NCBI GenBank assembly: GCA_016186495.1
Contig: JACPLO010000010.1
Coordinates: 26,905 to 90,904 of the forward strand
Reading direction: 5' to 3'
Origin: Candidatus Niyogibacteria bacterium
Lineage (GTDB): Bacteria > Patescibacteriota > Minisyncoccia > JACROR01
Length of the DNA stretch: 64,000 nucleotides
The notes beneath the pieces are model-generated. The model did not search any database, was not told the DNA's origin, and saw only the letters and a program-made list of their open reading frames with translations. Made by a program: the position numbers and the translations under genes. This document shows, in pieces, positions 35,639-49,984 of this stretch (positions are counted from its first letter, which is position 1; each line of letters starts with the position of its first letter).

Positions 35639-36262
35639 TTAAAATCCCAAGCCGGTAATCAATTGGAAAAGGCCGAAAACAATAGGCAGGATAATGCTCC
35701 AAAAAAAGAAAATAAAAATTAAAAGAATGAAGAATCCGTATTGTTCCAGAAAAATTTGGAGATGGCGCCAGCGATAAGGCAGGAGCGCGAAAAACACTTT
35801 GGAACCGTCTAAAGGAGGAATGGGGATTAAATTAAAAACCGCCAGAATAATGTTGATAAAAACAATTGAAGCGGTAATTTTTAGGAAAGCGTCGGAAATA
35901 AATCCGTTAGCCGCGCCGAATCTTATAATCAAGCCGAAGATAATCGCGATCAGGATATTAGCCAAAGGTCCGGCCGCGGCGACCGCGCCGGGCCCCCATT
36001 TTTGATTTTTTAAATTATAAGGATTATAAGGCACGGGACGAGCCCAGCCGAAAATAAAACCGCCGATAAGATAAGTGGTTGCCGGCACGATGATTGAACC
36101 GATTGGATCAAGGTGTTTTAAGGGATTTAAAGTAAGTCGTCCCTGAAGCCGGGCCGTGGGATCGCCTAAAGCATTGGCGCTGAAGCCGTGAGAAACTTCA
36201 TGAATCACCACTGACATGATTAAGATGGCGATCGCGAAGAAAAATTCAATTTCTGAAAACAT
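35639..36262 (-). CDS. M50-family (site-2 protease-like) zinc metalloprotease
   Basis: HEVSHG (HExxH) in a TM helix, NLIPIPPLDGS (LDG motif); 207 aa. Confidence 0.7.
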   Translation of the reverse strand: MFSEIEFFFAIAILIMSVVIHEVSHGFSANALGDPTARLQGRLTLNPLKHLDPIGSIIVPATTYLIGGFIFGWARPVPYNPYNLKNQKWGPGAVAAAGPLANILIAIIFGLIIRFGAANGFISDAFLKITASIVFINIILAVFNLIPIPPLDGSKVFFALLPYRWRHLQIFLEQYGFFILLIFIFFFWSIILPIVFGLFQLITGLGF

Positions 36263-36637
36263 GTTAAAAATTTAAAATTACTTGAATCTCCGATATTTTT
36301 ATAGTAAACTTTTTTTTATGGCAAACAATGTTTAATTTGTGGAAAAGGGTCGCGGATGGGGGGTAAAAGAAATCTTTTGCGCGGAAAATATAATCCTACT
36401 CCTAAAAAACGAAAATATCCCAATCTTCAGTGGGCGAGTTTTCCGGCTGGCGGCAGGATAAAAATTTGCACCCGTTGTCTCAAGAAAAATAAACTGCTTT
36501 ATTTTTCTTCCGATTCTTTGCAAAGCAAAAAAATTGCCAGTATGCCGAAGGCGCGAAGCAATAAGGAACAGAATCTCCATCTCAAAAAAACGGCTGTAAA
36601 ATAACCGTTTTTTGAGATAATAGTAAATAATAAATAT

Positions 36638-36810
36638 CGGGCCATAGTATAATGGCAGTACGCAAGGCTGGCTTTTCAAGTAATTTATCGGGATGTCGTA
36701 TAGTGGCAGTACGCATGCATGGGGTGCATGCAGTCCGAGTTCGATTCTCGGCATCCCGACCAATTACTTGAAAAGTTGCAACTTGGGTTCAATTCCCAGT
36801 GGCCCGACCA
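36638..36810 (+). other. tRNA-like outer halves (acceptor CGGGCCA/TGGCCCG-ACCA; D-arm and T-arm intact) separated by a 13-bp stem enclosing tRNA-Pro
   Basis: 5' part CGGGCCATAGTATAATGGCAGTACG... and 3' part ...TTGGGTTCAATTCCCAGTGGCCCGACCA; CTTTTCAAGTAAT (36672-36684) pairs with ATTACTTGAAAAG (36765-36777). Confidence 0.5.
36689..36762 (+). tRNA. tRNA-Pro (anticodon GGG), encoded CCA
   Basis: CGGGATG acceptor / CATCCCG-A-CCA; anticodon stem CATGC, loop ATGGGGT; T-arm CCGAG-TTCGATT-CTCGG. Confidence 0.75.
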
Positions 36811-36986
36811 TTCAAAATTAAATCAGATTAGAGAAAATCGCGAAGAAAAATGCCTTAAAATCGGCGATTCGTATTTGAATTTAACGCCGCTGATTTTATT
36901 TTTTTGTTTAATCAGCCGCGCGAAGGATTCAACCACATAATCAAAATGTTCTTTGTTGTAGACGCGGCGCGGAATGGCAAGGCGCA
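36805..36986. repeat. 182-bp direct repeat, copy 1 (starts in the tRNA 3' end; carries an orphan copy of the tryptophanase 3' end)
   Basis: ~98% identical to 38690-38871 (3 mismatches). Confidence 0.85.
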
Positions 36987-37244
36987 TTTCTTTGTTTCCT
37001 TTCTTAATTCGATTATTCTTTCTTTAATCCTGATCGGTGTTTCTCTGGGATTAGTTTTTGGCCTCTTTGATTTATTTTCCAGCCCTTCCAATCCGCTTTT
37101 TCTGTAATCAACCAACCAGTATTTAAGCGACCTTTCTGAAAAAGGACACACTCTGACCATATTCTTAATTGATATTTCTTTGTCTAATATCGGTTTAATC
37201 CATCTAAATTTTTCTTCTTTTGTTGATTTGGGCATAGTTTTCAT
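36912..37244 (-). pseudogene. transposase N-terminal HTH fragment (IS481/IS3-type), DDE domain absent
   Basis: FSERSLKYWLVDYRKSGLEGLENKSKRPKTNP resembles transposase HTH; ORF runs out into the direct repeat, no catalytic domain. Confidence 0.4.
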
Positions 37245-37300
37245 ATGCCCTTAGATTATTCAAAAAAGTGCAATATGTGTGTGTAGATTACCGCAAGCAC

Positions 37301-37329
37301 TTGACTTGTGGCAAAAAATAAACTATAAT
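37301..37329 (+). promoter_or_regulatory. consensus sigma70-type promoter (TTGACT - 17 bp - TATAAT)
   Basis: read directly; followed by SD GGAGGTG (37365-37371) 6 nt before ATG 37378. Confidence 0.6.
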
Positions 37330-37377
37330 ACGACGAGCATTTATCGAACCTTAAAAACCTCGATTGGAGGTGATCAC

Positions 37378-38415
37378 ATGAAGCAAACCAAAACTCTACT
37401 TCGAGTGCTATTGTCCCTTCTCATATTAGAGTCCGCGTTCGCAATTCACGAATACGGTCATCTAAGAGAGTTCCAGAAACGCGGCGTCCCTGTCAAGGAG
37501 TTTTCACTCGGGATCGGTCCCAGCATGTACCAATACCAAACTGATTCTTCGCTAACTGTAAGTTTCCGACTCATACCGATAATGGCGTATGTCGCGCCAA
37601 CGGAAGAGGGCGGAAACTTGTTTAAGAAGCAAGGATCGCTTTGGAACAAAATCGCTGTCGATTTGGCTGGAGTGCGTAATAACTTCTTGGTTGGCTTGGC
37701 CATCATACTCTTTCTGCAAATTCTTGGTTGGAGAAGAGGAAATCTCTCCGCAAAGGAACTCGCAGGAACAGCGATGGTTACGCCGTTCAAGATTCCGCTC
37801 CGCTTCGTCGCATTCCTCGTCGGATGCGTGACGTGGGGTCGCATCAACCTGGCGGAGAAATTTCTTCTCTCAACGGGGGGCATCGATCCGCCTAAGCCGC
37901 TCAAATCGCTCATCCTTTGGAACTTGACGCTTGGTCTTTTCAATCTTGCGCCAATTCCTCCACTTGACGGCGGTCACGCGCTAGAAGCTGTCTTACTCTC
38001 GGCAGGAACTAGCATCTACATATCAGAGATTCCGAAGTTTGTGGGCGTTATCCTTTTTGCCGTATATTGCACGACTGCTGGCAATCAGGATATGCGCGTG
38101 CTTGAAGTTGAACCAAGAAGCGACTCCGTGGAATCAAGAAGGGGCACAACGAAAAGAAGATCAAGCGGGGCGCTTGGCCGTTGGGAAGAAGAGGGAGAAG
38201 AAGCCCCCAGCTTCTTTTTGGTCCGGAGGATCACCCACACACATCTTCCGACTCGTGTCAGGAATATTCTCGAAGACTCCAGTATCTGCACGATTGGCGA
38301 ACTGCGGGAAACTACCGCAAGCCAGTTATTGCAGATCAAGGGTTTTGGTCTGAAATCTCTGGAAGCTGTCGAAAAACTTTTACGAGATAAAGGGCTATCC
38401 CTAAAACCGGAGTGA
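37378..38415 (+). CDS. chimeric ORF: RseP/M50-like N-terminal fragment fused to an RNA polymerase alpha-CTD-like HhH domain
   Basis: HEYGHL HExxH + NLAPIPPLDGGH (M50); C-terminal LPTRVRNILEDSSICTIGELRETTASQLLQIKGFGLKSLEAVEKLLRDKGLSL matches the alpha-CTD pattern; GC-rich; track ORF starts 37279 but the RBS-supported start is 37378. Confidence 0.5.
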   Translation: MKQTKTLLRVLLSLLILESAFAIHEYGHLREFQKRGVPVKEFSLGIGPSMYQYQTDSSLTVSFRLIPIMAYVAPTEEGGNLFKKQGSLWNKIAVDLAGVRNNFLVGLAIILFLQILGWRRGNLSAKELAGTAMVTPFKIPLRFVAFLVGCVTWGRINLAEKFLLSTGGIDPPKPLKSLILWNLTLGLFNLAPIPPLDGGHALEAVLLSAGTSIYISEIPKFVGVILFAVYCTTAGNQDMRVLEVEPRSDSVESRRGTTKRRSSGALGRWEEEGEEAPSFFLVRRITHTHLPTRVRNILEDSSICTIGELRETTASQLLQIKGFGLKSLEAVEKLLRDKGLSLKPE

Positions 38416-38436
38416 GAGTAGCTTCTCGACCATCGC

Positions 38437-38480
38437 GGGGGGCGCGCAGAGCAATCTGTGCGCCCCCCTTTTTCTTTTTC
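38437..38480 (+). terminator. strong intrinsic terminator (14-bp GC stem GGGGGGCGCGCAGA/TCTGTGCGCCCCCC + T-run)
   Basis: read directly after stop of 37378..38415. Confidence 0.75.
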
Positions 38481-38689
38481 AGAATTTCAAAGAACAAATC
38501 TTTGCGAAAACAAATTTTTTTAGCTATTCTTTATTTGTATTTGTATTTGTTTCCGCAACTATCGGCGCGAATTTTTCCGAAGCGAGGGCGGGGCGGAATT
38601 CCTCCCTTCCAATCCTCTCCTTCCGCCGCGCCCGAGCGGAGCGATCAGGAATTTTTCTCAAAATGGGTTCGCGCTAAATTCAGAATACG

Positions 38690-38871
38690 CGACCATTCAA
38701 AATTAAATCAGATTAGAGAAAATCGCGAAGAAAAATGCCTTAAAATCGGAGATTCGTATTTGAATTTAACGCCGCTGATTTTATTTTTTTGTTTGATCAG
38801 CCGCGCGAAGGATTCAACCACATAATCAAAATGTTCTTTGTTGTAGACGCGGCGCGGAATGGCCAGGCGCA
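38690..38871. repeat. 182-bp direct repeat, copy 2 (contains the functional 3' end of the tryptophanase gene)
   Basis: matches 36805-36986. Confidence 0.85.
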
Positions 38872-40063
38872 AAAGTTCTCGGGGCGCGCGCCGGTTTTCT
38901 TTGGTTTGCGGATCGCGGCCCTCCATTATTGATCCGATTTCAACTCCGCGCACGCCGCCTTCAATATATAAGGCGATTGCCAAAGAATGCGCCGGAAATT
39001 TGTTCCAGGCAATATGAGGCAAAAATTTGTCGGCGACAACATAAACCGCGTGGCCGCCGATCGGGCGAATGACCGGAACGCCAAGATTATGAAGCGATTC
39101 TCCCAAATATTTCGTCTGATTGACGCGATAGCGCAGATAATTTTCGTCAATTCCTTCATAAAGCCCTTGGGCCACTGTTTCTATGTCGCGGCCGGACATT
39201 CCTCCGTAATTTAAAAATCCTTCCATTAAAATCGCCTGCGGCGCCAGCTTTTCAAAAAGTTTGCGGTTTCTTAAAGCGATAAAACCGCCCATATTGGCGA
39301 TAGCGTCTTTTTTGGCGCTCATCAAAACGCCGTCGGCGTATTTCATCGTTTCCAAAACAATGTTTTTTATCGGCCAGCTTTTATATTTTTTTTCGCGCTC
39401 TTTTATAAAAAAAGAATTTTCGGCAAAGCGGGCAATGTCGTAAAACAGCGGAATTTTATATCGCCGGCAGATTTTTGAAACCGCTTTTATGTTTGTCAAA
39501 GACATCGGCTGGCCGCCGACGCTGTTGCAGGTAATTGTCAATAAAACATAAGCAGTTTTCTTGGAATTGAGAGTTTTTTCAAGTTTTTTCAAATCAACAT
39601 TGCCCTTGAAACCGAACAAACTTTCCGCATTCCAGGCGTTTTGGCAGGCGCAATCAATGATTTTACCGCCGCGATTTTCAATATGGGCCCGTGTCGTGTC
39701 AAAGGGAGAATTGCCGGCAATGATATCGCCGTCTTTGACAAGAACTTTATTGAAAACCTGTTCGGCGCCTCGGCCTTGATGAGTCGGGATAATATACGGA
39801 AATCCCATGATTTTTTGGATTGCTTTTTCAAGCCGCTGAAAGCTGGTTGAACCGGCATAGGATTCGTCGCCTTGCATCAGGGCCGACCATTGGTCTTCGG
39901 ACATCGCGCCGGTTCCGGAATCGGTTAACAAATCAATCGTTATATCGTCGGATTTTAAGAAAAATAAATTATATCCGGCTTTTTTTATTTTTTTGATCCG
40001 CTCTTCTTTTGTCAGAGTTTTTATTGGCTCTACCATTTTTGTTTTGTACGGCGGAAAAGTCAT
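38708..40063 (-). CDS. tnaA: beta-eliminating lyase: tryptophanase / tyrosine phenol-lyase family
   Basis: 451 aa; ...DLLTDSGTGAMS..., IPTHQGRGAEQ, PLP-lysine region SAKKDAIANMGG; close to full-length TnaA/TPL pattern. Confidence 0.8.
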   Translation of the reverse strand: MTFPPYKTKMVEPIKTLTKEERIKKIKKAGYNLFFLKSDDITIDLLTDSGTGAMSEDQWSALMQGDESYAGSTSFQRLEKAIQKIMGFPYIIPTHQGRGAEQVFNKVLVKDGDIIAGNSPFDTTRAHIENRGGKIIDCACQNAWNAESLFGFKGNVDLKKLEKTLNSKKTAYVLLTITCNSVGGQPMSLTNIKAVSKICRRYKIPLFYDIARFAENSFFIKEREKKYKSWPIKNIVLETMKYADGVLMSAKKDAIANMGGFIALRNRKLFEKLAPQAILMEGFLNYGGMSGRDIETVAQGLYEGIDENYLRYRVNQTKYLGESLHNLGVPVIRPIGGHAVYVVADKFLPHIAWNKFPAHSLAIALYIEGGVRGVEIGSIMEGRDPQTKENRRAPRELLRLAIPRRVYNKEHFDYVVESFARLIKQKNKISGVKFKYESPILRHFSSRFSLI

Positions 40064-40078
40064 TTTGGCGAGTTATTT

Positions 40079-41344
40079 TTAATTTAATTTGAGGTTGCCG
40101 TCGGCTTTGAGGGTATTGATATTTTTAACAAATATTTTTTTAAGCGCTTTCAGGCAGCCAACCGCGGCGATCATCGCCGCGTTATCTCCGGCAAATTGGA
40201 TTTCCGGCAGGCGAAGCAATATTTTTGGAAATTTTTTGTTTAATTCTTTTTTAATCTGCTTTCTTAATTCTTGATTAGCGGCCACGCCGCCGCCAAGAAT
40301 GATGGTTTTTGGTTTATATTTCTGGGCGGCTTTTAAGGTTTTAGCGATTAAAACATCAACTGCCGCTTGCTGGAATTCTCGGCAGATTTGAGCTTTTATT
40401 TCGGGCGTTAATTCGGGTAATTTTCTGACAAGATATAAAACTGCGGTTTTTAAACCGGAAAAACTGAAATCAAAATCGCGGGAATCAATCATCGGCCTCG
40501 GCAATTTGATTTGAGGCTGAAGTAATTCTGATTTAGAAATCGCGGTTTTTGCTAAAGCAGAAACCGCGGGTCCGCCGGGATAACCTAATCCTAAAAGTTT
40601 AGCTGTTTTGTCAAAAGCCTCGCCAGCCGCGTCGTCTCGCGTCCGGCCGATCACTTTATATTTAAGAAATTGCTTCATTAAAACCAGTTCCGTATGCCCG
40701 CCGCTGATCAAAAGCGCCAGGGCGGGGAAAGAAATTAAAAATTCTTGTTTGTTCAAGAAAACGGATAAAATATGCCCTTCCAGATGATTGGCCGCGATCA
40801 GCGGTTTTTCCCAGATTAAAGCAAGGGCTTTGGCAAAATTCACTCCGGTCCAAAGCGCGGGCTCAAGTCCCGGTCCGCTGGTTACGGCAATCGCGTCTAT
40901 TTTAGGTTTTTTAATTTTTGAAATCTCTTTAAAAAACTTTTTTAACAATTCTGGTTCGCGTTTTAATATTTTGTTTATGTTATTTTCAGTTTGTTTAGAG
41001 ATTAAAAATTGAGAATTAGAAATCAATAAATTTGATTTCTTTAATGCTTTTTTTAGAACAAGGATTAAATTTGCCTGATGTTCTCTTTTGGCAAGCGACG
41101 GCACTACGCCGCCCCAGGGCGCGTGGATTTTTATCTGTGAAGAAACGATATTGGCTAAAATTTTGAAACGCGGGTTTTTAAAATTGCCCTTTGCTTCTAA
41201 AATTGCCGCTCCGGTTTCATCGCATGATGTTTCAATGGCGAGAATTTTTATCCCGTTAGAAAGTCTTTTTGTTTGGCTTTCTTGCCCAACAATTTTTTTC
41301 TTAACATAATTAGTTGTCTTTCTAACGGGATTTATTCTTTTCAT
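40079..41344 (-). CDS. tsaD: tRNA N6-adenosine threonylcarbamoyltransferase TsaD
   Basis: ILAIETSCDETGAAIL..., HxxGH metal site (HLEGH); annotated N-terminal ~35 aa are encoded by an inserted repeat (41250-41331), true start uncertain. Confidence 0.85.
   Translation of the reverse strand: MKRINPVRKTTNYVKKKIVGQESQTKRLSNGIKILAIETSCDETGAAILEAKGNFKNPRFKILANIVSSQIKIHAPWGGVVPSLAKREHQANLILVLKKALKKSNLLISNSQFLISKQTENNINKILKREPELLKKFFKEISKIKKPKIDAIAVTSGPGLEPALWTGVNFAKALALIWEKPLIAANHLEGHILSVFLNKQEFLISFPALALLISGGHTELVLMKQFLKYKVIGRTRDDAAGEAFDKTAKLLGLGYPGGPAVSALAKTAISKSELLQPQIKLPRPMIDSRDFDFSFSGLKTAVLYLVRKLPELTPEIKAQICREFQQAAVDVLIAKTLKAAQKYKPKTIILGGGVAANQELRKQIKKELNKKFPKILLRLPEIQFAGDNAAMIAAVGCLKALKKIFVKNINTLKADGNLKLN
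41250..41331. mobile_element. MITE-like element, CCGTTAGAAA family (copy inside annotated 5' end of tsaD)
   Basis: ATCCCGTTAGAAAGTC ... GTCTTTCTAACGGGAT inverted repeat (1 mismatch). Confidence 0.55.
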
Positions 41345-41401
41345 TAAGTTGATTTTACCTTAAATTTTGATTAAACTACAAAATAACTTGTTTGATAATC
41401 T

Positions 41402-41476
41402 GACCCTATCGTCTAGCCCGGCCTAGGACGTGTCCCTTTCACGGACAAAACGCGGGTTCAAATCCCGCTAGGGTCA
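41402..41476 (+). tRNA. tRNA-Glu (anticodon TTC)
   Basis: near-identical architecture to canonical bacterial tRNA-Glu (GTCTAG...CCCTTTCACGG...GGTTCAAATCC); acceptor GACCCTA/TAGGGTC. Confidence 0.8.
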
Positions 41477-41496
41477 TGCGAAATAATTGTTTGTTT

Positions 41497-41551
41497 CGGA
41501 CGCGAGTAAATTACTTTACTCGTATCGGGATTTGAAATCCCGCTAGGGTCA
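41497..41551 (+). repeat. hairpin + degenerate copy of the tRNA-Glu 3' end (CGGGATTTGAAATCCCGCTAGGGTCA)
   Basis: CGAGTAAATTACTTTACTCG hairpin, then 26 nt matching the T-arm/acceptor 3' strand of the upstream tRNA-Glu. Confidence 0.6.
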
Positions 41552-41590
41552 ATTGTTTTGCCTTTTTTGCGCCTTTAGCTTAATGGCAGA

Positions 41591-41791
41591 GCGTTCTCTT
41601 GCCCCGTTAGAAACCAATACGCGCGGTTAGCTCAGTGGTAGAGCATTCGCTTGACGTGCGAAGGGTCATAGGTTCAAATCCTATACCGCGCACCGCAAGT
41701 TTCTAACGGGGTGAATGCAAAAGGCTGTAGGTCTGTCCCGTAGCCAGACGAAGTCTGTGGTACTGGGATTCAATCCCTACAAGGCGCACAC
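41591..41791 (+). other. tRNA-like outer halves (GCGCCTT...D-arm... / ...GGGATTCAATCCC-TACAAGGCGC-ACA) flanking an inverted-repeat-enclosed tRNA-Val
   Basis: 5' GCGCCTTTAGCTTAATGGCAGAGCG (acceptor + D-arm) and 3' AAGGCGC perfectly complementary acceptor strand; inner IR CCCCGTTAGAAACC (41602-41615) / GTTTCTAACGGGG (41699-41711). Confidence 0.4.
41621..41694 (+). tRNA. tRNA-Val (anticodon GAC)
   Basis: GCGCGGT acceptor, TAGCTCAGTGGTAGAGC D-arm, loop TTGACGT, T-arm GGTTCAAATCC, ACCGCGC-A-CC. Confidence 0.8.
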
Positions 41792-41969
41792 TTTAGAAAA
41801 TGGCAAGCCAGAAGAAACCGAATTTTTAAAAGTTTCGGCTGGCTGCTGGAAGACTCTTCTTATGTTCTTTAATTTGACTCCATGAGGTTTTTTTAGCTTC
41901 ATAGAGTTTCTTTATAAAAAAGGTATAATGTAAATGTCGAATAATTATCGTTAAAAAAATAAAAAAAAT

Positions 41970-42224
41970 ATGAATGAAAAACCTTTAGGCAAAGTTACCC
42001 ATTACTACGACAAGGCGATGGTGGCAATAATAAAACTTATCGGCGGCGGACTGAAAATCGGCGATGCGGTGAAATTCGTTAAAGGCGAAAATGAATTTAT
42101 TCAAAACATTGAATCAATGCAGATTGAACACGAAACATTAAAATCTGCCAAAAAAAACCAGGAAGTCGCGGTAAAAGTCAGCCAGCCGGCCAAAGAAGGC
42201 ACGCTTGTTTATAAAGCCGAATAA
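41970..42224 (+). CDS. small beta-barrel protein (EF-Tu domain-2-like), hypothetical
   Basis: 84-aa ORF with RBS-like upstream A-rich region; weak similarity pattern only. Confidence 0.3.
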   Translation: MNEKPLGKVTHYYDKAMVAIIKLIGGGLKIGDAVKFVKGENEFIQNIESMQIEHETLKSAKKNQEVAVKVSQPAKEGTLVYKAE

Positions 42225-42263
42225 TGATAACTTATTGTTCTAAGTAAAGGCAAAATAAATAAT

Positions 42264-42336
42264 GGTGAGCGTAGCTCAATGGCAGAGCTCTCGGTTGTGG
42301 TCCGAGCGGTTGCGGGTTCAAATCCCGTCGCTCACC
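42264..42336 (+). tRNA. tRNA-His (anticodon GTG) with encoded G-1
   Basis: G-1 + GTGAGCG acceptor, loop TTGTGGT, T-arm GCGGG-TTCAAAT-CCCGT, CGCTCAC-C. Confidence 0.8.
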
Positions 42337-42351
42337 CTAAAAAAAATAAAA

Positions 42352-42378
42352 AGGCTGCCTTCTGGCAGCCTATTTTCT
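42352..42378. terminator. bidirectional terminator AGGCTGCC-TTCT-GGCAGCCT + T-run
   Basis: read directly between tRNA-His and the minus-strand acyl-CoA dehydrogenase gene. Confidence 0.7.
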
Positions 42379-42380
42379 AT

Positions 42381-44258
42381 CTAATTGATAATCCCTTTTT
42401 GAATAAAATCATAGCGGTTATTCAATAAATTCTTAGCGATGATTTTGGCGCTGGCGTCATCGTTGTCCCGCAATGACGCAAAATAATGCTTTATTCGACG
42501 CTTGGCCGCGCGACAATATGCTTTTGCCAATTCCATTACCGGATCAGAATAATTTGAATCAAAAAATTGTTTTTTCAGAGCAAACGACCAAACAGCCGCC
42601 ATCAAAAACAATTCAGCCGCGATCCAAAACAATCGATCAATCATCAGTTGCTTATTAACCATTTGATCCCGGTGCTTAGCGGAATAAATAATAATGGCGC
42701 GGGCTAATTTTCGCGCGTTTTTTTCCACAAACTTGAAATCAGATCGCACCTGGCGCGGCAAATTATCAGGCAATCGCGAACTAAAACTTAATTTAAAATA
42801 TTGCCAGGCAAATCCGATAACCGCGGATATTTTTTCAACCAAATTACCTTTATCAAGAAACGGCTCGCCGCGTTTAAGATAATTATCAAGCCCTTCGCGA
42901 ATCACATATTGGCTTAAAATTTGCGTAGAGCCCTCAAAAATACGGTTAGGCCGGTTATCCGTGAACATTTGGTCTATTGACGGCGCTTGTTCCCGCGGCG
43001 CCAGCGATTCAAACGACTCATAGCCGCGTCCGCCGCGAAGCTGCATTGCGTCATCCATTATCTTCCAACCCCATTCAGAAGCAATCACTTTGCAGATTGC
43101 CGCTTCAAGACGGCAATCTTGCTTGCGATCCGCTAAACCGGCGGCGTAATCGGTTATCGCTTCCATCGCGAATGTTCGGACAACTGCCGGAACCAGCATG
43201 CCGCTTCCGATTAATTCCTTTTCGCCGATAAAAGCGCCCCACTGCCAGCGGGTTTTAGCCCACCAATTCATTATTTTCAGACATTTTTTAGAATTTGCAA
43301 CACAACTTCCGGCAATAGAAATACGGCCGGTATTCAACGCCCGAAGAGCAATTTTAAAACCATTGCCCTCGCCGCCGACCAGCGCGCGATTATCAACTTC
43401 AACGCCGTTAAAAGAAAGAATTCCGTTAAAAATCCCCGGCATACCCATAAAACGCGCTCGCTGGATAATTGCCACCCGGTTTAATTTTTCGCTGGCGTTC
43501 GGGACAATAAAAACGCCGAAACAATAACCTTTTTTTGAATTATCCAAATCTTCGGGTAAATCTAAAATCTTGGCGACCACCGCGAGATACTCGGCTAGCG
43601 GTTCGCCGGTGCGCCAGACTGAGTTGGTCGCGTACCATTTTTCGCCGTAAATTTTATAACCGACAACTTTACCGTTTTGATCGCGCAAACGGAGAGCGTA
43701 AGTTCGCATCCGCGCCGGATCAGAACCGACTTCTTTTTCGGTAAAACAGAAAGCAGACGGCCATTTCATAAGCGCCGGCAAATAAAGAGAAATTTGTTCG
43801 GGTGTTCCGTAATTAAGCACCGAAAATTTGGCGCCAATGGTATTATCAGCTGAAATCATAATGCCGATTGAAGGGCAAAACGCGCTTAAAAGAGCGATAA
43901 CATGAGTATAAGTTGTTTGGGATAAACCAAGACCGCCGTATTTTTCGGGCACTTTAAGTTTAAACAGGCCGAAATCAGCCATCGCTTCAATCAATTCAAG
44001 GGTAATATCTTTTTTGCCGTGAATAATGTCCGGTTCAATTTTTGATTCAAGAAATTCTTTTAAATCGGAAATAATTTTGGCTTCTTTTTGAGCATCTTCC
44101 GGATTTTGCTCCGGCCACGGAAACAAAAGATTAAAATTAGGCGCTCCTTCAAAAAGAGAAGCGACAAAACCTTTATTGACACTGGCATCCCTGTGCTCCT
44201 CGGCAATCTGGACGCCTTTTCCCAGCTTATTAAAAAACGCACTGCTTGTTTTAGGCAT
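42381..44258 (-). CDS. long-form acyl-CoA dehydrogenase family protein
   Basis: 625 aa; ACAD N-, middle- and C-terminal domain pattern (...GSDPARMRT..., ...YEGTSQI-like FEGSTQIL...). Confidence 0.75.
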   Translation of the reverse strand: MPKTSSAFFNKLGKGVQIAEEHRDASVNKGFVASLFEGAPNFNLLFPWPEQNPEDAQKEAKIISDLKEFLESKIEPDIIHGKKDITLELIEAMADFGLFKLKVPEKYGGLGLSQTTYTHVIALLSAFCPSIGIMISADNTIGAKFSVLNYGTPEQISLYLPALMKWPSAFCFTEKEVGSDPARMRTYALRLRDQNGKVVGYKIYGEKWYATNSVWRTGEPLAEYLAVVAKILDLPEDLDNSKKGYCFGVFIVPNASEKLNRVAIIQRARFMGMPGIFNGILSFNGVEVDNRALVGGEGNGFKIALRALNTGRISIAGSCVANSKKCLKIMNWWAKTRWQWGAFIGEKELIGSGMLVPAVVRTFAMEAITDYAAGLADRKQDCRLEAAICKVIASEWGWKIMDDAMQLRGGRGYESFESLAPREQAPSIDQMFTDNRPNRIFEGSTQILSQYVIREGLDNYLKRGEPFLDKGNLVEKISAVIGFAWQYFKLSFSSRLPDNLPRQVRSDFKFVEKNARKLARAIIIYSAKHRDQMVNKQLMIDRLFWIAAELFLMAAVWSFALKKQFFDSNYSDPVMELAKAYCRAAKRRIKHYFASLRDNDDASAKIIAKNLLNNRYDFIQKGIIN

Positions 44259-44376
44259 CGTTTCCTCCTTTTTCTTAAAAAATTTAAAAGAACCGCGATA
44301 TTCAATATCGTATGAAAAAATTCATAAAAAAACAACTTCTCTGGATGCGCCGGAAAATTCGGAGTATTATAGACCA

Positions 44377-45381
44377 ATGGATTTAAGCCGATTGGAATTA
44401 ATTTTAGCGAACCAGCCAAAATACCGCCTTAAACAAGCAAAAGAGGCGGTTTTTAAGAATTTGGCGGCAAACTGGTCGGAAACGACTAATCTTCCGCCAA
44501 AATTAATAAAAGAATTAAATAAAAAATGCCCGCTCCAAATAAACGGCAGAATAATCCAATCTGCCGGTCACGATACAGCTAAAGCGATTATTATCCTGGC
44601 AGACGGCCTTAAAATAGAAAGCGTGCTGATGCCGCATCAAAGAAAACGTTTTACGGTTTGCGTTTCATCGCAGGTCGGCTGTCCTTTGGGGTGTAAATTT
44701 TGCGCGACCGGCGCTTCCGGTTTTCGCCGGAATCTGACGGCAATGGAAATCGTAGAGCAAGTTTTATTTTTCGCGCGGCATCTCAAAAAAACGTCGGCTG
44801 AAAAAATTACCAATGTTGTTTATATGGGAATGGGCGAACCGTTTTTAAATTATGACAATGTCTTGGCTTCAATAAAAATTTTGAATGACAAAGACGGCCT
44901 GAATATCGGCGCGCGTAAAATATCCGTTTCCACGAGCGGCTTGATTGAAGGAATAAAAAAATTAGCCGAAGAAAATCTGCAAGTCAATCTGGCAATTTCG
45001 CTTCATTCGCCGGAAACGGATTTGCGAAGCGCCTTGATGCCCGTCAACAGAAAATATCCGCTGAAAAATGTTTTAACCGCGGCAGATGATTATATCCGAA
45101 AAACTTCCCGAAAAGTGATGTTTGAATATATTTTATTAAAAGGCGTAAATGATACGCCGGCGCACGCCGAAAAGCTCGCTAAATTGATGCAAAAACCGCT
45201 TTACTTCGTAAATCTGATTCTTTACAATCCGGCCGGCCGCCAAGGACTAGAGCCGTCCACAGCCAAAGACGTCAAAAAATTCAAAGAAATTTTAGAGCGC
45301 GCGGGCGTGCCCGTTTCGGAACGTTACCGTTTCGGCCGCGAGATTAAGGCCGCCTGCGGCCAATTAGCCGCGAATTGTTAA
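44377..45381 (+). CDS. rlmN: 23S rRNA m2A2503 methyltransferase RlmN (radical SAM)
   Basis: CVSSQVGCPLGCKFCATG CxxxCxxC; start moved to ATG 44377 (track ORF 44176 overlaps the convergent gene). Confidence 0.85.
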   Translation: MDLSRLELILANQPKYRLKQAKEAVFKNLAANWSETTNLPPKLIKELNKKCPLQINGRIIQSAGHDTAKAIIILADGLKIESVLMPHQRKRFTVCVSSQVGCPLGCKFCATGASGFRRNLTAMEIVEQVLFFARHLKKTSAEKITNVVYMGMGEPFLNYDNVLASIKILNDKDGLNIGARKISVSTSGLIEGIKKLAEENLQVNLAISLHSPETDLRSALMPVNRKYPLKNVLTAADDYIRKTSRKVMFEYILLKGVNDTPAHAEKLAKLMQKPLYFVNLILYNPAGRQGLEPSTAKDVKKFKEILERAGVPVSERYRFGREIKAACGQLAANC

Positions 45382-45798
45382 TCTCCGCGCGAGATAAAAA
45401 GAAAGCGGAAGTAAAAACATCATTTGCAAAATCGGCAAGAGGCCGATATTTAAATAAGGAATTAAAGGCATCGCGCTGTCATAATTCCATTTGCCGGTGA
45501 AAAGCGCGTTTTTTTCTATAGCTGCAGCAATAATAAAACCAAGCGCGGCCAGAATAAAAAAATCACTTTTATTAAATTTAAATTTCAACGGCAATGCTTG
45601 TTTAATTAAAATCATAAAAAGCAACGCCGATAAATTGATCAGAACATCTCCAAGCGCGCCCTTCAAACATATTGAAAAATGGCTGAAAAAAGAAACAAAC
45701 CCCGCGTAAAAAGGCGCTTGAAGATTCTCCCATATAATATTCAAAATGAAAGAAATAACAACAAAAAAGAAAAAATAACGAACATTAAAATTTTTCAT
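45364..45798 (-). CDS. hypothetical integral membrane protein
   Basis: 144 aa, 4 predicted TM helices. Confidence 0.35.
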   Translation of the reverse strand: MKNFNVRYFFFFVVISFILNIIWENLQAPFYAGFVSFFSHFSICLKGALGDVLINLSALLFMILIKQALPLKFKFNKSDFFILAALGFIIAAAIEKNALFTGKWNYDSAMPLIPYLNIGLLPILQMMFLLPLSFYLARRLTIRG

Positions 45799-45986
45799 AT
45801 TTTTCTTCGGCGGAATTCGGATTACTGAAATTCTAACAAATTTTAGTCTTGAAGAGAATCTTATGAAAATTCTTCTTTTCTGTTTCTAACGGAATCTGGA
45901 ATTTCTTTTTGCCTCGAAAAATCCGTACGATTTGGTCGCCGAGCGAAGCGAGGCGAATCTTTAAAACTTGCAATTTCCTATGTGGT

Positions 45987-46302
45987 GCGCGGGAGAGGAT
46001 TTGGTCACAAATAAATTTCCTGACGGAAATTTTTCGCGACCCCGCCTCGCTTGTTCCGCTTCGCGGAACATCGTTCGGCTTTCAAATCCTCACGCGAACA
46101 AAGCAGTTTGTTCGCTTCCCGCGCCAATTCACCGTGTTCATTATGCGCGGGAGAGGATTTGGTCACAAATAAATTTCCTGACGGAAATTTTTTGCGACCC
46201 CGCCTCGCTTGTTCCGCTTCGCGGAACATCGCTGTGGCTTTCAAATCCTCACGCGAACAAAGCAGTTTGTTCGCTTCCCGCGCTAATTCACCGTGTTCAT
46301 TA
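45987..46302. repeat. 2 x ~159-bp tandem repeat downstream of tRNA-Leu(GAG); each unit starts with a copy of the tRNA 3' end (GCGCGGGAGAGGATTTG) followed by GTCACAAATAAATTTCCTGACGGAAA and two hairpins
   Basis: units from 45987 and 46145 ~97% identical; hairpins GTTCCGCTTCGCGGAAC and GCGAACAAAGCAGTTTGTTCGC; generates spurious ORFs on both strands. Confidence 0.8.
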
Positions 46303-46385
46303 TGCGCGGGAGAGGATTTGAACCTCCACGCCTTGCGGCATACGCCCCTCAAGCGTACGTGTCTACCGGGTTCCACCACCCGCGC
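46303..46385 (-). tRNA. tRNA-Leu (anticodon GAG), long variable arm
   Basis: minus strand GCGCGGG...GTG-GAACCCGGTAGA-CAC...TACGC-TTGAGGG-GCGTA...TGCCGCAAGGCGTG...GGTTCAAATCC...CCCGCGC-A. Confidence 0.7.
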
Positions 46386-46389
46386 ATTT

Positions 46390-46869
46390 TTATTCTTTTT
46401 TGGTTTCAGGAAGTTTTTCTTTTGTTTCCAGAGTGTTTTTTTCTTCAGCCGCGGCCGGTTTTTCCGTTTGAGTTGATAAAAGCATTATAGCTTCGGTTTT
46501 TAATTGTTTCATTTTCTTTTTGATTTCTTTGGCGGCTTTTTCGCGGATATGATAAAGCTTGGCGCGCCGGGTTTTTGAACGGCGCACCAGTTCTATTTTT
46601 TCAATATTAGGAGAATACAATGGGAAAACGCGTTCAACGCCAAAGCCGCCGCTCAATCGCCTGACCGTAAAAGTCGCTCCGGATTCGGCGCCGTGTTTTT
46701 TGGCGATGATTATTCCTTCAAAAGCCTGAAGCCGCGTTTTATCGCCTTCTTTGATTTTCTGCCAGACGCGCACCGTGTCTCCGGAACGAATGTCCGTTTT
46801 TTTTCTTTCTTTCATATTAACCGGCAAAAAATTGGCTGATATTACTGGCATATTAAATCTTTTTATCAC
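46390..46869 (-). CDS. rplS: 50S ribosomal protein L19 with Lys-rich C-terminal extension
   Basis: [32 protein letters not shown]...[13 protein letters not shown] typical L19. Confidence 0.85.
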
Positions 46870-46925
46870 AAATTTTAATTTTAATCAAACCCCCGCATTT
46901 ATAATAAGTGCGGGGGTTAAATGTT

Positions 46926-47612
46926 TCATTTCAATTTTTCCAGCGTATTTTTTAAATCTTCGGGCAAATCCGCTTCAAGTTTAAGGCGAGAACCGGCCGG
47001 CAAAGTCAATTCTAAAGAAAAAGCATGCAGGAAATGCCGTTTAAGGCCATTCGGGCATCGGAATAATTTTCCCGCGTAAAGCTGGTCGCAAGCTAACGGA
47101 TAGCCGATGGCTTTCAGATGCGTTCTTATCTGATGGGTGCGGCCGGTTTTCGGCTCAAGTTCAAGCAAAGTGTAGCCGTTGAATTTTTTCAAAACCTTAT
47201 AATAAGTAAGGGCTTCGCGCAATCGGCCGGAGGCTCTGACGCTGGCCGCGCGCTTAATGGGATTTTTTTTGGCGCGGCCGATCGGCAAATTTATTTTGCC
47301 TTTTTTTTGCCGGATTTCGCCGATTGCCAAAGCAAGATATTTTTTAACGATTTTTTGCCGCTGGAATTGTTTTTTTAAATAATCAAAAGTTTCCTGATTT
47401 TTTGCGATAAGTAAAATTCCGGAAGTGTCTTTGTCCAGCCGATGGACAACGCCGGGCCGCGCCGGATTATCTCCCACTTTTTTAATTTCCGGCCTTATCT
47501 CTGTTATTTTATCTATTAAAGTTTCTTTTTTGTGGTGGGCGTCGGGATGAACCACCAAGCCAGCCGGTTTATTGACCGCTAAAAGATCGCGGTCTTCGTA
47601 AATAATTTCCAT
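46926..47612 (-). CDS. RluA-family pseudouridine synthase (RluD-like)
   Basis: HRLDKDTSGILLIAK catalytic Asp motif; 228 aa. Confidence 0.8.
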   Translation of the reverse strand: MEIIYEDRDLLAVNKPAGLVVHPDAHHKKETLIDKITEIRPEIKKVGDNPARPGVVHRLDKDTSGILLIAKNQETFDYLKKQFQRQKIVKKYLALAIGEIRQKKGKINLPIGRAKKNPIKRAASVRASGRLREALTYYKVLKKFNGYTLLELEPKTGRTHQIRTHLKAIGYPLACDQLYAGKLFRCPNGLKRHFLHAFSLELTLPAGSRLKLEADLPEDLKNTLEKLK

Positions 47613-47689
47613 AAAATATTTAAAAGCGTATAATTAAATAATAGTCGATTTTTTAATGAAAAATAAATAGCAATTCAATAAAAGATAAT

Positions 47690-47926
47690 ATGAAGAAAGT
47701 AATTATTTATTCTACTCCGACCTGCGGTTATTGCCATATGGCCAAAGATTTTTTTAAGGAACATAACATAGATTATACGGATTATGATGTTGCGGCGGAT
47801 GATGCCAAGAGGCAGGAAATGATTGACCGTTCCGGCCAAATGGGCGTGCCGGTCATTGATATTGACGGCGAATTAACAATCGGATTTGACGAACAAAAAA
47901 TATCCAAACTTTTAGGAATTAAATAA
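47690..47926 (+). CDS. glutaredoxin-like protein (NrdH/YruB type)
   Basis: 78 aa; YSTPTCGYCHMAK CxxC motif. Confidence 0.7.
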   Translation: MKKVIIYSTPTCGYCHMAKDFFKEHNIDYTDYDVAADDAKRQEMIDRSGQMGVPVIDIDGELTIGFDEQKISKLLGIK

Positions 47927-48654
47927 TGGTTTCAAAGTGGCTTCAACAAAGTAATTCCTGGCATGAAAACAAGCATATCAAAGGAGGGCAATATTTAAAG
48001 AATATTGTTTATGGCGCCAATGACGGGATTATCACTACTTTTGCGGTGGTGGCCGGCGTAGCCGGAGCTTCTCTTTCTTCCGTTGTTATTGTGATTATGG
48101 GTTTGGTTAATCTTTTAGCGGACGGATTTTCAATGGCTGTTTCTAATTATCTTAGCATTAAATCAGAAATAGATATTTATCAGCGCGAAAAAGAAGTGGA
48201 AAAGAAAGAGATTCAAATTAATCCCGAACAGGAGAAAAAAGAAATCCGCAATATTTTAGCCAGCAAGGGTTATCAGGGAGAAGATTTGGAAAAAATAACG
48301 GCGCTGATTTCCAAAAATAAAACTTTTTGGCTTGATTTTATGATGCATGAAGAATTGAATTTTGCGCCCGCCGCCAGTTATCGGCCTAAAAGAGCGGCTC
48401 TCGCCACTTTTTTATCTTTTATCGCCGCCGGTTTTGTGCCGATTTTGCCTTATTTGATTTTTAAGGGAAGCGGAGACGAAGTATTTAAATACGCGGTGGC
48501 GATGACCGGCGTTGCTCTTTTTACGGTTGGTTCTTTACGCTCATTTTTTACTAATAAAAAATGGCATTTAGCCGGTTTAGAAATGCTTTTTGTCGGCAGT
48601 ATTGCCGCGGCGATCGCTTACGGCGCGGGATTTTTATTGAAAGGAATTACTTAA
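47926..48654 (+). CDS. VIT1/CCC1-family membrane protein (iron/manganese transporter-like)
   Basis: GANDGIITTFAVVAGVAGA signature; 242 aa. Confidence 0.7.
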   Translation: MVSKWLQQSNSWHENKHIKGGQYLKNIVYGANDGIITTFAVVAGVAGASLSSVVIVIMGLVNLLADGFSMAVSNYLSIKSEIDIYQREKEVEKKEIQINPEQEKKEIRNILASKGYQGEDLEKITALISKNKTFWLDFMMHEELNFAPAASYRPKRAALATFLSFIAAGFVPILPYLIFKGSGDEVFKYAVAMTGVALFTVGSLRSFFTNKKWHLAGLEMLFVGSIAAAIAYGAGFLLKGIT

Positions 48655-48692
48655 CTTTCTTTTGTTCTTCAAGCTGCAAAAGCACAGCGCTT

Positions 48693-49748
48693 TTAAATTT
48701 CTTCCAATTCAACTTGGGTTTGCGTTTTCTTCCCATTGCGAAGAATGGTCAGATTTATTTTTTCGCCGATTTTGAAGTTGGAGAGAATGTCCTCCAAAGT
48801 ATTTTCTTCGTTGATTTCTTTTTCATTGCATTTCAGCACAATGTCAAATTCTTGAAGGCCGGCTTTATCCGCGGGACTGTTTGAAATAATCGCGGTTTCT
48901 CCTTGAGGCAGGCCTTCGCTGACAATCAGCGCGCCGGTTGAGACCGGCAGATGAAATCTTTCTTGGATTTGATCGTTCAAAATAATATGGCGGAGTCCGA
49001 TAAAAGGGCGCCGGATGCGGCCGTATTTTTTAATTTCTTCCAAATCGCGTTTGGCTCTTTCAATGGGAATGGCAAAGCCGATATTTTGGGCGCCGAAAAC
49101 AACGGCGGAATTTATGCCGATAGCCCGGCCCTCAAGATCAATCATCGGTCCGCCGGAATTGCCGGGATTAATTGCCGCGTCGGTTTGAATAAGCCCTTTC
49201 AGCCGTTCTTGATGGCCGGCCATATCCGTTACCGCGGTGATTAAACGCGAGAGGCCGGAAACTACGCCGGTGGAAACCGTATTTTGAAATTCGTTTAAAG
49301 CATTGCCAATGGCGATGACGGTTTGCCCCAATTCCAAATCAAACGAAGAGCCTAATTCCAAGTGAGGAAGATTTTTACTTTTTATTTTTAAAATCGCTAC
49401 GTCATTTAAAGGATCTCTGGCCAGCACTTCGGCTTCATGTTTTTTCCCGCCGCCCATGATTATGCTGTATTCGGCGTCAGGATCAACCACCACGTGTTTA
49501 TTGGTTAAAATAATTCCCTCGGGGGAGATGACAAAACCGGATCCGCCTCCGACTTTAATATGCCCATGTTCGTCTTTGGGCGCTTGTTTTAATTTAGTTT
49601 CAATAAAAGCGCGGTCATAAGGATTGTTAAATAAAGGATTAAAAGAAAGTTCTTTGGCAATTTGTTCCAGGTCTTTGGAAATTGCCACGCTGACGACGGC
49701 CGGTAAAGTTTTTTTAACCGCATTTTTAATTTTTTGTTCGTAATCCAT
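48693..49748 (-). CDS. htrA: HtrA/DegP-family serine protease with PDZ domain
   Basis: GNSGGPMIDLEGRAIGINSA; TNKHVV (His), D...; C-terminal PDZ. Confidence 0.8.
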   Translation of the reverse strand: MDYEQKIKNAVKKTLPAVVSVAISKDLEQIAKELSFNPLFNNPYDRAFIETKLKQAPKDEHGHIKVGGGSGFVISPEGIILTNKHVVVDPDAEYSIIMGGGKKHEAEVLARDPLNDVAILKIKSKNLPHLELGSSFDLELGQTVIAIGNALNEFQNTVSTGVVSGLSRLITAVTDMAGHQERLKGLIQTDAAINPGNSGGPMIDLEGRAIGINSAVVFGAQNIGFAIPIERAKRDLEEIKKYGRIRRPFIGLRHIILNDQIQERFHLPVSTGALIVSEGLPQGETAIISNSPADKAGLQEFDIVLKCNEKEINEENTLEDILSNFKIGEKINLTILRNGKKTQTQVELEEI

Positions 49749-49888
49749 AATATAAGTTTGATTTTAACGCTGATAATGTATTATACTACGTATAATTTAC
49801 ATTCGCTCGGCAATGAACGGCAATGAAAAATTAATTTTTCTTTCATTGTTCTCGCTCATTTAATTATAAAGTATAGCATATTATTTTT

Positions 49889-49961: not shown

Positions 49962-49984
49962 TTAAGTTTTGTTTTTTAAAACAG

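Follow-up and report, generated by a model that had tools for sequence, protein, structure and literature searches.

Nested tRNA genes with matching anticodons in Patescibacteria: a tRNA-Val(GAC) gene bounded by inverted repeats within the remains of a second tRNA-Val gene

We identified a nested pair of tRNA genes in a 64,000-nucleotide stretch of a Candidatus Niyogibacteria genome (assembly GCA_016186495.1, contig JACPLO010000010.1, positions 26,905 to 90,904), which is referred to here as the window. At 41569-41788 of the window, a complete tRNA-Val(GAC) gene is located in a perfect 13-bp inverted repeat, and this unit lies in turn inside the two halves of a second tRNA gene, the shell. It is well supported that at this locus the inner gene is alive and the outer gene dead. 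Nests of this kind, in which the two anticodons match, are widespread among the ultra-small Patescibacteria, and a published description was not found. We consider it probable that a mobile tRNA cassette bounded by inverted repeats entered the anticodon loop of a cognate tRNA gene, replaced that gene and left it behind as a decaying shell.

The elements of the locus are listed in Table 1. The original prediction, which was made from the letters of the sequence, had described a tRNA-Val(GAC) bracketed by inverted repeats between an upstream acceptor strand with D-arm and a downstream acceptor strand with T-arm. All elements that it named are present and the nested arrangement is real. The inner tRNA-Val(GAC) reached 73.1 bits with the Rfam tRNA model over model positions 1-71, the highest tRNA score of the window, and accounts for 72 of the 115 nt of the insert. 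The bracketing repeats, predicted to be 12-13 bp long, are complementary at 13 of 13 positions (CCCCGTTAGAAAC and GTTTCTAACGGGG) and thus form terminal inverted repeats. In the shell, the acceptor strands GCGCCTT and AAGGCGC form seven of seven Watson-Crick pairs, as had been predicted, and the T-stem (GTAGG/CCTAC, 5/5) and D-stem (4/4) are fully paired as well; a perfect complement to a 7-mer within 100 nt is expected about 0.006 times by chance. The outer T-arm had been misread as GGGATTCAATCCC. It actually consists of GTAGG and TTCAATC-CCTAC, which are separated by a 37-nt insertion. The whole composite was found at 100% identity in four independent Logan assemblies (L023, L025, L026, L027; the collected loci are designated by L numbers throughout). 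Groundwater samples contain this organism, and its population is present in SRR12113430, SRR12113385, SRR12113420, SRR12113424, SRR4343428 and SRR4343430.

Table 1. Features of the nested tRNA-Val(GAC) locus, of other nests and of repeat copies without cargo (positions in the window).
Feature	Position	Strand	Basis or remark
Outer acceptor 5' strand GCGCCTT	41569-41575	+	sequence
Outer TA (T8 A9) and D-arm GCTT-AATGGCA-GAGC	41576-41592	+	sequence; aligns with the L108 and L096 shells
G TTC (position 26 and remnant of the anticodon-stem 5' strand), then junction TCTTG	41593-41601	+	alignment with L108/L096
Left inverted-repeat arm CCCCGTTAGAAAC	41602-41614	+	with the TTG before it, element end (C/T)TTG-CCCC
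Leader CAATAC, 6 nt, from left arm to inner tRNA	41615-41620	+	sequence; unpaired in the fold prediction
Inner tRNA-Val(GAC), canonical cloverleaf, presumed working gene	41621-41692	+	ARAGORN; Rfam RF00005
Trailer CCGCAA	41693-41698	+	CC encoded, terminal A of CCA not encoded
Right inverted-repeat arm GTTTCTAACGGGG	41699-41711	+	sequence
Constant element end TGAAT	41712-41716	+	sequence
Decayed anticodon-stem 3' strand GCAAA and variable region AGGCT	41717-41726	+	alignment with L108 and L096
Outer T-stem 5' strand GTAGG	41727-41731	+	alignment with L108/L096; cloverleaf rescue test
37-nt second insert, dividing the shell's T-arm between positions 53 (T-stem) and 54 (T-loop)	41732-41768	+	removal restores ARAGORN calls
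Outer T-loop TTCAATC and T-stem 3' strand CCTAC	41769-41780	+	sequence
Outer acceptor 3' strand AAGGCGC and discriminator A	41781-41788 (AAGGCGC 41781-41787)	+	sequence
tRNA-Pro nest	36638-36810	+	tRNA-Pro(GGG) 36689-36762, arms CTTTTCAAGTAATT / AATTACTTGAAAAG, tRNA-Pro-like shell
Partial tRNA-Leu nest	53332-53463	+	5' relic GCCCGGGTGGCAAAATTTG, arm CCCCCACGTTAA, tRNA-Leu(UAA), arm TTAATGTAGGGG, TGAAT
Cargo-less CCCGTTAGAAA repeat copy	41252-41329	.	direct repeats TTTTAT/ATTTAT
Cargo-less copy	31961-32005		direct repeats ATGAAT/ATGAAA
Cargo-less copy	59667-59770		direct repeats ATGAAT/ATGAAT
Cargo-less copy	63696-63772		direct repeats GTTGAT/GTTGAC
GTTAAA variant of the cargo-less repeat copy	33222-33254		

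The shell halves were compared with 284 distinct tRNAs. They best matched the live tRNA-Val(GAC) of a relative (L002), with a score of 33 versus 26 for the runner-up. The flanks are recognisable tRNA halves and not the unrelated spacer that would have refuted the original prediction, although the outer gene has decayed rather than been conserved. Its anticodon is absent. In an alignment with the shells of two related nests (L108 and L096), the anticodon-stem 5' strand is 2 nt shorter, the 3' strand is unpaired and the insertion in the T-loop has been gained; no relatives of this 37-nt insert were found among the collected loci. None of 1920 single-excision variants of the shell was called as a tRNA by ARAGORN. 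When the 37-nt insert was deleted as well, a tRNA was called in 465 of 960 variants at the default threshold. Intron-aware ARAGORN runs on the Val nest and on the tRNA-Pro nest of the window (Table 1) called no outer tRNA either. An outer anticodon GCC (Gly) was considered and rejected: the TTGCC belongs to the end (C)TTG-CCCC of the inserted element, which makes this anticodon illusory, and the body of the shell matches tRNA-Val. The outer gene is a dead former tRNA-Val that is unable to decode and is decaying.

To find comparable loci, metagenomes were scanned with a pattern of two D-arms 15-45 nt apart, which ordinary tandem tRNAs cannot satisfy, and at least 120 loci were obtained. The following numbers refer to the matches listed: 62 contain a complete inner tRNA, and 21-25 of these have a well-formed shell (acceptor 6-7/7, anticodon stem 4-5/5 and T-stem 4-5/5). 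The nests comprise Val (GAC, UAC and CAC), Thr, Ile and Met tRNAs, and the named hosts belong to Nomura-/Parcubacteria, Woykebacteria, Daviesbacteria and Roizman-/Levybacteria, that is, to Paceibacteria and Microgenomatia lineages. In strict register, shell positions 34-35 are identical to the inner anticodon in 13 of 21 shells; in the other eight the loop is replaced or shifted by one, and a differing anticodon occurs in none. Also among these matches, a recognisable 3' half is present in only about 40% of the shells with an intact 5' half. A permutation test of the anticodon match gave 0 of 100000. Nesting was also seen independently of the scan pattern, in 3-4 of 33 tRNAs within approximately 213 kb that had not been selected by it. 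Literature searches retrieved no description of a nested, embedded or intron-encoded tRNA in bacteria, and such nests are not described in the study of group I introns at the 35/36 site in Patescibacteria (PMC13011429) either.

Homologous composites are present in L108, L096, L047, L052, L103, L106, L131, L147 and L155. Their inserts have the same repeat, the anticodon loop that the insert occupies belongs to a tRNA-Val of the same anticodon, and the shells are intact. In L002, whose TsaD protein is 62% identical to that of the window, a tRNA-Val(GAC) lies inside another tRNA-Val(GAC), and the shell is called by ARAGORN at the default threshold after excision of 107 nt; the L002 tRNA type that best matches the window shell is the inner gene of this nest. 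Comparison of pairs of nests showed that cargo and shell have uncoupled histories. The shells of L052 and L103 are 95% and 87% identical and their inner tRNAs 78%, and for the window and L108 the inner tRNAs are 88% identical and the shells 69% and 52%. An extra right arm and 3' half in L047 and L106 suggests serial invasions, followed by deletion between the repeated arms. Damage to the shells is also seen elsewhere: the L103 shell has T55 changed to G in the T-loop and has lost its CCA, and the T-loops of the L085 and L102 shells are ruined.

The window repeat CCCCGTTAGA is common to many of the metagenome loci. Within the window, CCGTTAGAAA occurs 24 times with at most one mismatch, versus 7.1 times expected, and none of 100 shuffles reached 24. 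The arms form 6-7 pairs of 33-108 bp, none of which encloses an open reading frame (ORF). In element polarity the ends of the family read (C/T)TTG-CCCC...GGGG-TGAA(T). Nests in which this polarity equals that of the tRNA (class B) are those of the window, L096 and L108; in class A (L047, L052, L103, L106, L131, L147, L155) it is reversed, and the locus reads TTNA-TTCA-CCCC...GGGG-CAAG-Y. In both classes the inner tRNA is co-oriented with the shell, which the scan pattern required. At least 10 nests, with three valine anticodons and in different hosts, carry CCCCGTTA(G/A)A arms with constant ends at the same junction. The right end GGGG-TGAAT of class B is also present in L122 and in the tRNA-Leu nest of the window, where it belongs to a different repeat. 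Over 22 members of the family, 5 of 12 arm pairs are changed on both sides (32 cells), a value that 0 of 500 shuffles reached.

The prediction that the bracketing repeats belong to a family with copies elsewhere in the window resembling miniature inverted-repeat transposable elements (MITEs) held, since cargo-less copies were found (Table 1). They have unrelated AT-rich interiors and flanking direct repeats of 5-6 bp. The 45-bp copy CCCGTTAGAG...CTCTAACGGG (31961-32005) is located within the 3' end of polA and lengthens the reading frame by about 19 codons; deletion of this copy together with one ATGAA repeat gives a normal C-terminus (...NWGEMKK stop). A filled and an empty site could be compared as well. 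L029, which encodes a 95% identical version of the 84-aa protein found near the nested locus, has a copy at the start codon of this gene flanked by ATGAAT, and the corresponding site of the window (41970) is empty with a single ATGAAT. These comparisons show that the cargo-less copies of the repeat are mobile as DNA. The term MITE here names a behaviour, not a proven mechanism. The alternative raised in the original prediction, that the repeat family derives from tRNA-processing stems, found no support: most copies in the window flank AT-rich sequence that is not tRNA, and tRNAs that are not nested have no such stems.

These observations suggest how the composite may have arisen and how it may work. 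A complete tRNA-Val(GAC) together with short spacers, enclosed by the 13-bp inverted repeat and the element ends (C/T)TTG-CCCC...GGGG-TGAA(T), would make up the cassette, which would have been inserted into the anticodon loop of a resident tRNA-Val(GAC). The inner gene would be transcribed within the unit of the old gene, which includes the upstream tRNA-Glu, and its tRNA would be freed by ordinary 5' and 3' tRNA processing, with the repeat helix keeping 6-nt single-stranded spacers beside the inner acceptor stem. Function would now be supplied by the inner gene. The match between inner and outer anticodons can be understood if insertions that destroy an essential single-copy tRNA are retained only where they supply the same anticodon themselves. 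The nested copies, too, would have moved as DNA, and the responsible enzyme could be a transposase of unknown type or one of the small GIY-YIG nucleases described below. More tentatively, Patescibacteria may harbour undescribed selfish, self-complementing tRNA cassettes that home to the cognate anticodon loop (approximately position 35/36) and both destroy and replace the gene, a generalisation that we hold to be possible rather than probable. Serial nested invasion would then turn over tRNA genes and leave Russian-doll shells, and homing might be driven by small GIY-YIG nucleases or by a structure-specific enzyme. In a bolder variant, intact shells would be used as bacterial split or intron-containing tRNAs and be matured by a pathway new to bacteria.

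The proposal in the original prediction that a tRNA was carried inside a MITE-like element into an older tRNA gene is favoured by the valine identity of the shell, the homologous composites and the mobile cargo-less copies. Its MITE-like part is less secure for the tRNA-carrying copy, and several observations weigh against a mobile cassette. No target duplication was found at the nested tRNA-carrying copies in the several registers tried. Their flanks are TCTTG/TGAAT in the window and TTCA/CAAG in class A, and the insertion chemistry must differ from that of the cargo-less copies because the 4-5 nt that adjoin the repeat on its outer side do not vary and are swapped when the element is reversed. 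Exactly C36 and A37 are missing from every class A shell, and class B shells retain only T32 and T38. One transposon family cannot explain all nests, because the repeat of the tRNA-Pro nest is not a window repeat family. A transposase partner or homing endonuclease for the Val-cassette family was not found in a search that was far from exhaustive, and the window contains no GIY-YIG ORF. The sole transposase trace in the window is a truncated IS481/IS3-like OrfA (HTH_28/HTH_32, 110 aa, 36912-37244 in the region 36823-37244, minus strand). It is located just downstream of the tRNA-Pro nest, and a Candidatus Niyogibacteria metagenome-assembled genome (MAG) encodes a protein with 100% identity to it. 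OrfA was rejected as the mobilising transposase, as full copies of this insertion sequence elsewhere end in ACAGACATTTTGCACT, which is unrelated to the tRNA cassettes. The flawless acceptor, D- and T-arms of several shells without anticodon (L108, L096, L153, L056 and the Pro shell) could reflect a structural role rather than youth. Finally, the scan pattern demanded two intact, co-oriented D-arms, and the sample is biased to well-kept, co-oriented shells. Short stretches of the anticodon region are duplicated in other nests, namely TCAT (L043), TGATA (L119) and TA (L062). An orthologous empty tRNA-Val site was sought by synteny with the downstream 84-aa gene, and none was recovered in the fetched relatives, in which the link between the 84-aa gene and tRNA-His is conserved and the tRNA-Glu/Val block is not.

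Other explanations of the nested locus were weighed against a mobile cassette. The composite might be due to chance resemblance or chimeric assembly, and two of six public contigs indeed break within the inner tRNA-Val (at 41658 and 41660), while three more end inside the upstream tRNA-Glu. However, four independent assemblies span the composite without a mismatch, the acceptor, T- and D-stems of the shell are completely paired and homologous composites occur in unrelated samples, by which this explanation is effectively refuted. A dedicated cassette would also be unnecessary if breaks at tRNA genes, made by GIY-YIG nucleases or arising when foreign DNA is taken up and anchors on conserved tRNA sequence, were followed by break repair or illegitimate recombination, and palindromic mini-elements settled later in the junk. 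Such a process would fit the tRNA debris without cassettes in the window (the tRNA-Glu 3' half, the tandem tRNA-Val(UAC) and tRNA-Ser relics and the 5' relic before tRNA-Leu(UAA)), the GIY-YIG genes next to tRNAs that have a relic on one side (L130, L084) or are accompanied by long direct repeats (L094, L058), the nested copies without target duplications and the unrelated repeats used by different nests. It nevertheless appears unlikely, given that at least 10 loci have one and the same repeat, with invariant ends (TTCA-CCCC...GGGG-CAAG), at an identical junction, which points to a defined unit and a defined site, and that all tRNAs seen in the window with flanking repeats are either nested or accompanied by a relic half.

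The remaining explanations assign a present function to the shell. It could be a functional tRNA that an intron of a new kind, bearing the inner tRNA, interrupts near position 35/36, and whose paired halves are trimmed and ligated (for example by RtcB) as in archaeal split tRNAs; RNase P and 3' processing would free the inner tRNA, and the acceptor stem and repeat helix would hold the halves together. Many shells do have perfect stems, and excision at 35/36 restores a perfect anticodon loop in L149 (TTCG|TAA) and L154 (CTTA|TAA) and a tRNA-Val call at the default threshold in L002. The same site is used by the group I introns reported in the Asn and Asp tRNAs of Patescibacteria (PMC13011429). 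Against this stand the missing anticodon, shortened anticodon stem and 37-nt T-loop insert of the window shell, the clearly damaging changes in the L103 shell, the failure to draw a bulge-helix-bulge at the junctions inspected (L154, L149 and the window), the lack of an Rfam group I signal even at an E-value of 10 in an insert whose non-tRNA part is only about 35 nt, and the base preceding the junction, which is A or G and not U. Good preservation of a shell does not imply decoding, because the class B shells without anticodon (L108, L096) are equally well kept. We regard a spliced or split outer tRNA as very improbable overall; at the window locus it is excluded, an exclusion that does not extend to the best-kept shells elsewhere. 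A non-decoding shell could instead serve as a tRNA-shaped scaffold that stabilises the precursor or guides RNase P or 3'-end enzymes to the inner tRNA, for which the engineered tRNA scaffold trick is an artificial parallel. Flawless arms, even with an encoded CCA, in shells without anticodon (the Pro shell at 36638-36810, L108, L096, L153, L056) and repeat arms that stay complementary through double changes are consistent with such a role. We consider it quite unlikely in view of the continuum of decay with its frequent loss of recognisable 3' halves, the insertion tolerated in the T-loop at the window locus, the ruined T-loops in L085 and L102, and the fact that most tRNAs of the same genome have no shell and need none; the matching-anticodon rule is not predicted by it. 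Insertion of a mobile cassette remains the explanation that we prefer.

L094, L058, L130, L084 and L002 have genes for GIY-YIG nucleases within or next to tRNA cassettes that are accompanied by tRNA relics. In L094, a tRNA-Val and a GIY-YIG ORF (Pfam GIY-YIG, 4.9e-17) lie in a tRNA-like shell with 27-nt direct repeats, and L058 has the same design. The order is 5' relic, GIY-YIG and full initiator tRNA in L130, and tRNA-Ala, GIY-YIG and 3' relic in L084; in L002 the GIY-YIG gene follows tRNA-Ser. Nuclease-driven homing is on these grounds a candidate mechanism. Beside GIY-YIG ORFs, tRNA-like genes were also observed in which the anticodon arm is replaced by a plain hairpin (for example TCCCGAA-AGCA-TTCGGGA; loci L058 746-820, L094 13457-13500 and approximately 13865-13910, and L084), one of which was called by ARAGORN as a tRNA with a 4-base 'anticodon'. 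These genes could be healed shells or nuclease target sites. Inteins with LAGLIDADG domains in a ribonucleotide reductase and a UvrD-like helicase, seen in relatives collected for the insertion-sequence comparison (L157 1-1936 and L158 1-445), likewise indicate that these genomes commonly contain elements of the homing type. The matches to the two-D-arm pattern also include AT-rich phage-like tRNA arrays with no nest (L039, L083, L099, L126). In arrays of this type an ORF with a zinc-ribbon motif follows a tRNA with a duplicated 5' fragment; judged from their translations these ORFs may be HNH endonucleases, and a different mechanism may be involved.

The window contains twelve tRNA genes between 36.6 and 55.3 kb. 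The repeat of the tRNA-Pro nest is 14 bp long and unrelated to that of the Val nest, and its copy number in the window is at chance level. The Pro shell has C1-G72, A73, an encoded CCA and good D- and T-arms, with the junction after G35 and a truncated anticodon-stem 3' strand. C1-G72 together with A73 is the signature of bacterial tRNA-Pro. An anticodon GGC (Ala) for this shell was rejected, since C1-G72 and A73 are present and G3-U70 is absent. In the partial tRNA-Leu nest the tRNA-Leu(UAA) gene (53363-53447) is preceded by a relic of 19 nt of a tRNA-Leu 5' end and has no 3' relic; a 12-bp inverted repeat abuts the acceptor stem and ends in GGGG-TGAAT as in the Val cassette. Exact matches to the 9-mer GGGGTGAAT are confined within the window to two places, the right repeat ends of the Val and Leu nests.

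Relics outside nests were seen as well. A degenerate second tRNA-Glu 3' half is located at 41497-41551, directly after tRNA-Glu(UUC) (41402-41476). It extends from the anticodon (TTTC-GGAC) to an identical 3' end TAGGGTCA, contains a 20-nt palindrome CGAGTAAATTACTTTACTCG in the variable region and has an altered T-loop; this relic is one-sided and no nest is present. tRNA-Val(UAC) and tRNA-Ser(CGA) each precede two tandem units (50057-50340 and 50436-50560). In a repeat search each unit showed an antisense copy of the tRNA T-arm and 3' end with hairpins, followed at its end by a sense copy of the tRNA 3' end. These units look like stacked relics of repeated replacement on the 3' side. A palindrome CCTGCCTGCCGGCAGGCAGG recurs in or beside tRNA relics of several Patescibacteria loci (L130, reverse-complement at approximately 7300-7320; L021; L052) and resembles the arms CCCGCCTGCC / GGCGGGCAGG around nested tRNA-Thr and tRNA-Ile (L149, L154) and tRNA-Val (L002). 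It is apparently a second family of palindromes associated with tRNA relics.

Other genes of the window are polA, iPGM, uvrA, a short IF-2 gene, tsaD and those of a dnaA-dnaN-yidC origin region. The window TsaD is 77% identical to the TsaD of a 'Patescibacteria group' MAG. The neighbours of the nested locus encode TsaD, the 84-aa protein and an acyl-CoA dehydrogenase, with no integrase among them. In the origin region (14200-18900), which contains a jag/KhpB-like gene, yidC, dnaA and dnaN, a stretch of 30% GC at 16-18 kb explains the dip in the composition profile. The truncated OrfA runs into a fragment whose translation looks like the C-terminal end of a beta-eliminating lyase; an entire gene for a lyase is present at 38708-40063. 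Promoter and terminator scans gave counts at the level of shuffled sequence.

Genes for tRNAs are usually seen as among the most stable of a genome. Here, approximately a tenth of the tRNA genes (3-4 of 33 in the sequence sampled without the pattern) would have been overwritten from within by a foreign copy, with the fossil gene remaining around it. This looks like a new route for horizontal replacement of an essential gene and like a new selfish-element strategy, in which the element carries a spare of the gene that it breaks. If some of the intact shells function, protein-dependent tRNA splicing, or a split tRNA, would be seen in bacteria for the first time. In practical terms, shells and half-tRNAs are invisible to or confusing for standard tRNA finders and short-read assemblies break there; the matching-anticodon rule and the 35/36 junction are handles for finding the responsible enzyme.

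Among known systems, archaeal tRNA introns and split tRNAs come close in some respects. The tRNA-Trp intron of Haloferax encodes a box C/D RNA, and we know of no bacterial tRNA-splicing endonuclease. As in the archaeal systems (reviewed in PMC4090602 and PMC4390854), a second functional RNA is present inside the intervening sequence of a tRNA and the halves are held by an extra helix. In contrast, the nest is bacterial, the inner RNA is a tRNA with the same anticodon, the outer gene is decayed and a bulge-helix-bulge, in which a 4-bp helix between two 3-nt bulges marks the exon-intron junctions, is lacking. Inspection and folding showed that the junctions are asymmetric internal loops (5x5 in class B, 8x5 in class A, 4-8 by 3-7 in L154 and L149) in which the central 4-bp helix is impossible. 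Group I introns that interrupt Patescibacteria tRNA genes, including the unusual 35/36 site, have been described (Nakagawa et al., 2026, PMC13011429). They share with the nests the phylum, the gene class, this site (in the class A Val, Thr, Ile and Pro nests) and an outer gene missed by standard tRNA finders. They differ in that the nests have no ribozyme and have A or G instead of U before the junction, that the insert holds a tRNA and that the outer gene of the window cannot be restored. A group I intron, which would have the ribozyme fold of Rfam RF00028 and be longer than about 200 nt, was rejected, as no Rfam match was obtained in 36000-56000 even at an E-value of 10 and the insert is only 115 nt long. 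It was also rejected by the criteria of that study, as the window shell gave no tRNA call in 1920 variants and the relatives have A35 or G35 before the junction.

The target of the phage enzyme T4 SegB lies within the tRNA region. Free-standing GIY-YIG homing endonucleases, of which SegB is an example, are found in tRNA clusters of phages (PMC13096335). Like these, the small genes in L094, L058, L130 and L084 adjoin tRNAs and are tied to tRNA duplications or relics; unlike them, the window and the cassette have no GIY-YIG gene, and the phage enzymes drive co-conversion of nearby markers and not nesting of one tRNA in another. Elements with tyrosine integrases at tRNA and tmRNA genes, with their partial tRNA fragments, are discussed in PMC9897764. 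Islands of this type likewise target an essential tRNA gene, supply a substitute for its 3' part that preserves its function and leave a displaced tRNA fragment, and the anticodon loop is a classic crossover site. They are, however, kilobases in size, encode an integrase and duplicate part of the tRNA as direct repeats, whereas the nested cassette measures approximately 110 nt, contains a whole tRNA, has inverted repeats and is nested rather than side by side. An integrase-type island was rejected on finding both 5' and 3' halves and no neighbouring integrase; a lone extra 3' half does occur at the neighbouring tRNA-Glu. An integron attC site was rejected on the order GTT...AAC, which is the reverse of R''/R', and an IS200/IS605-type insertion 3' of TTGAT-like motifs on the base after A35, which is foreign to the original loop, and on the ends, which pair mutually and form no separate hairpins.

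MITEs and palindromic mini-elements offer a further comparison, and the Rickettsia palindromic elements are examples of the latter that sit inside RNA and protein genes. Like these, the window repeat is short and non-coding, has terminal inverted repeats, is present in many copies per genome and encloses unrelated interiors, and target duplications of 5-6 bp and a filled versus an empty site are seen for its cargo-less copies. In the nested copies target duplications are lacking, and no autonomous partner was found. Unlike a MITE, the nested element carries a complete tRNA gene and sits in the anticodon loop of a gene with the same anticodon.

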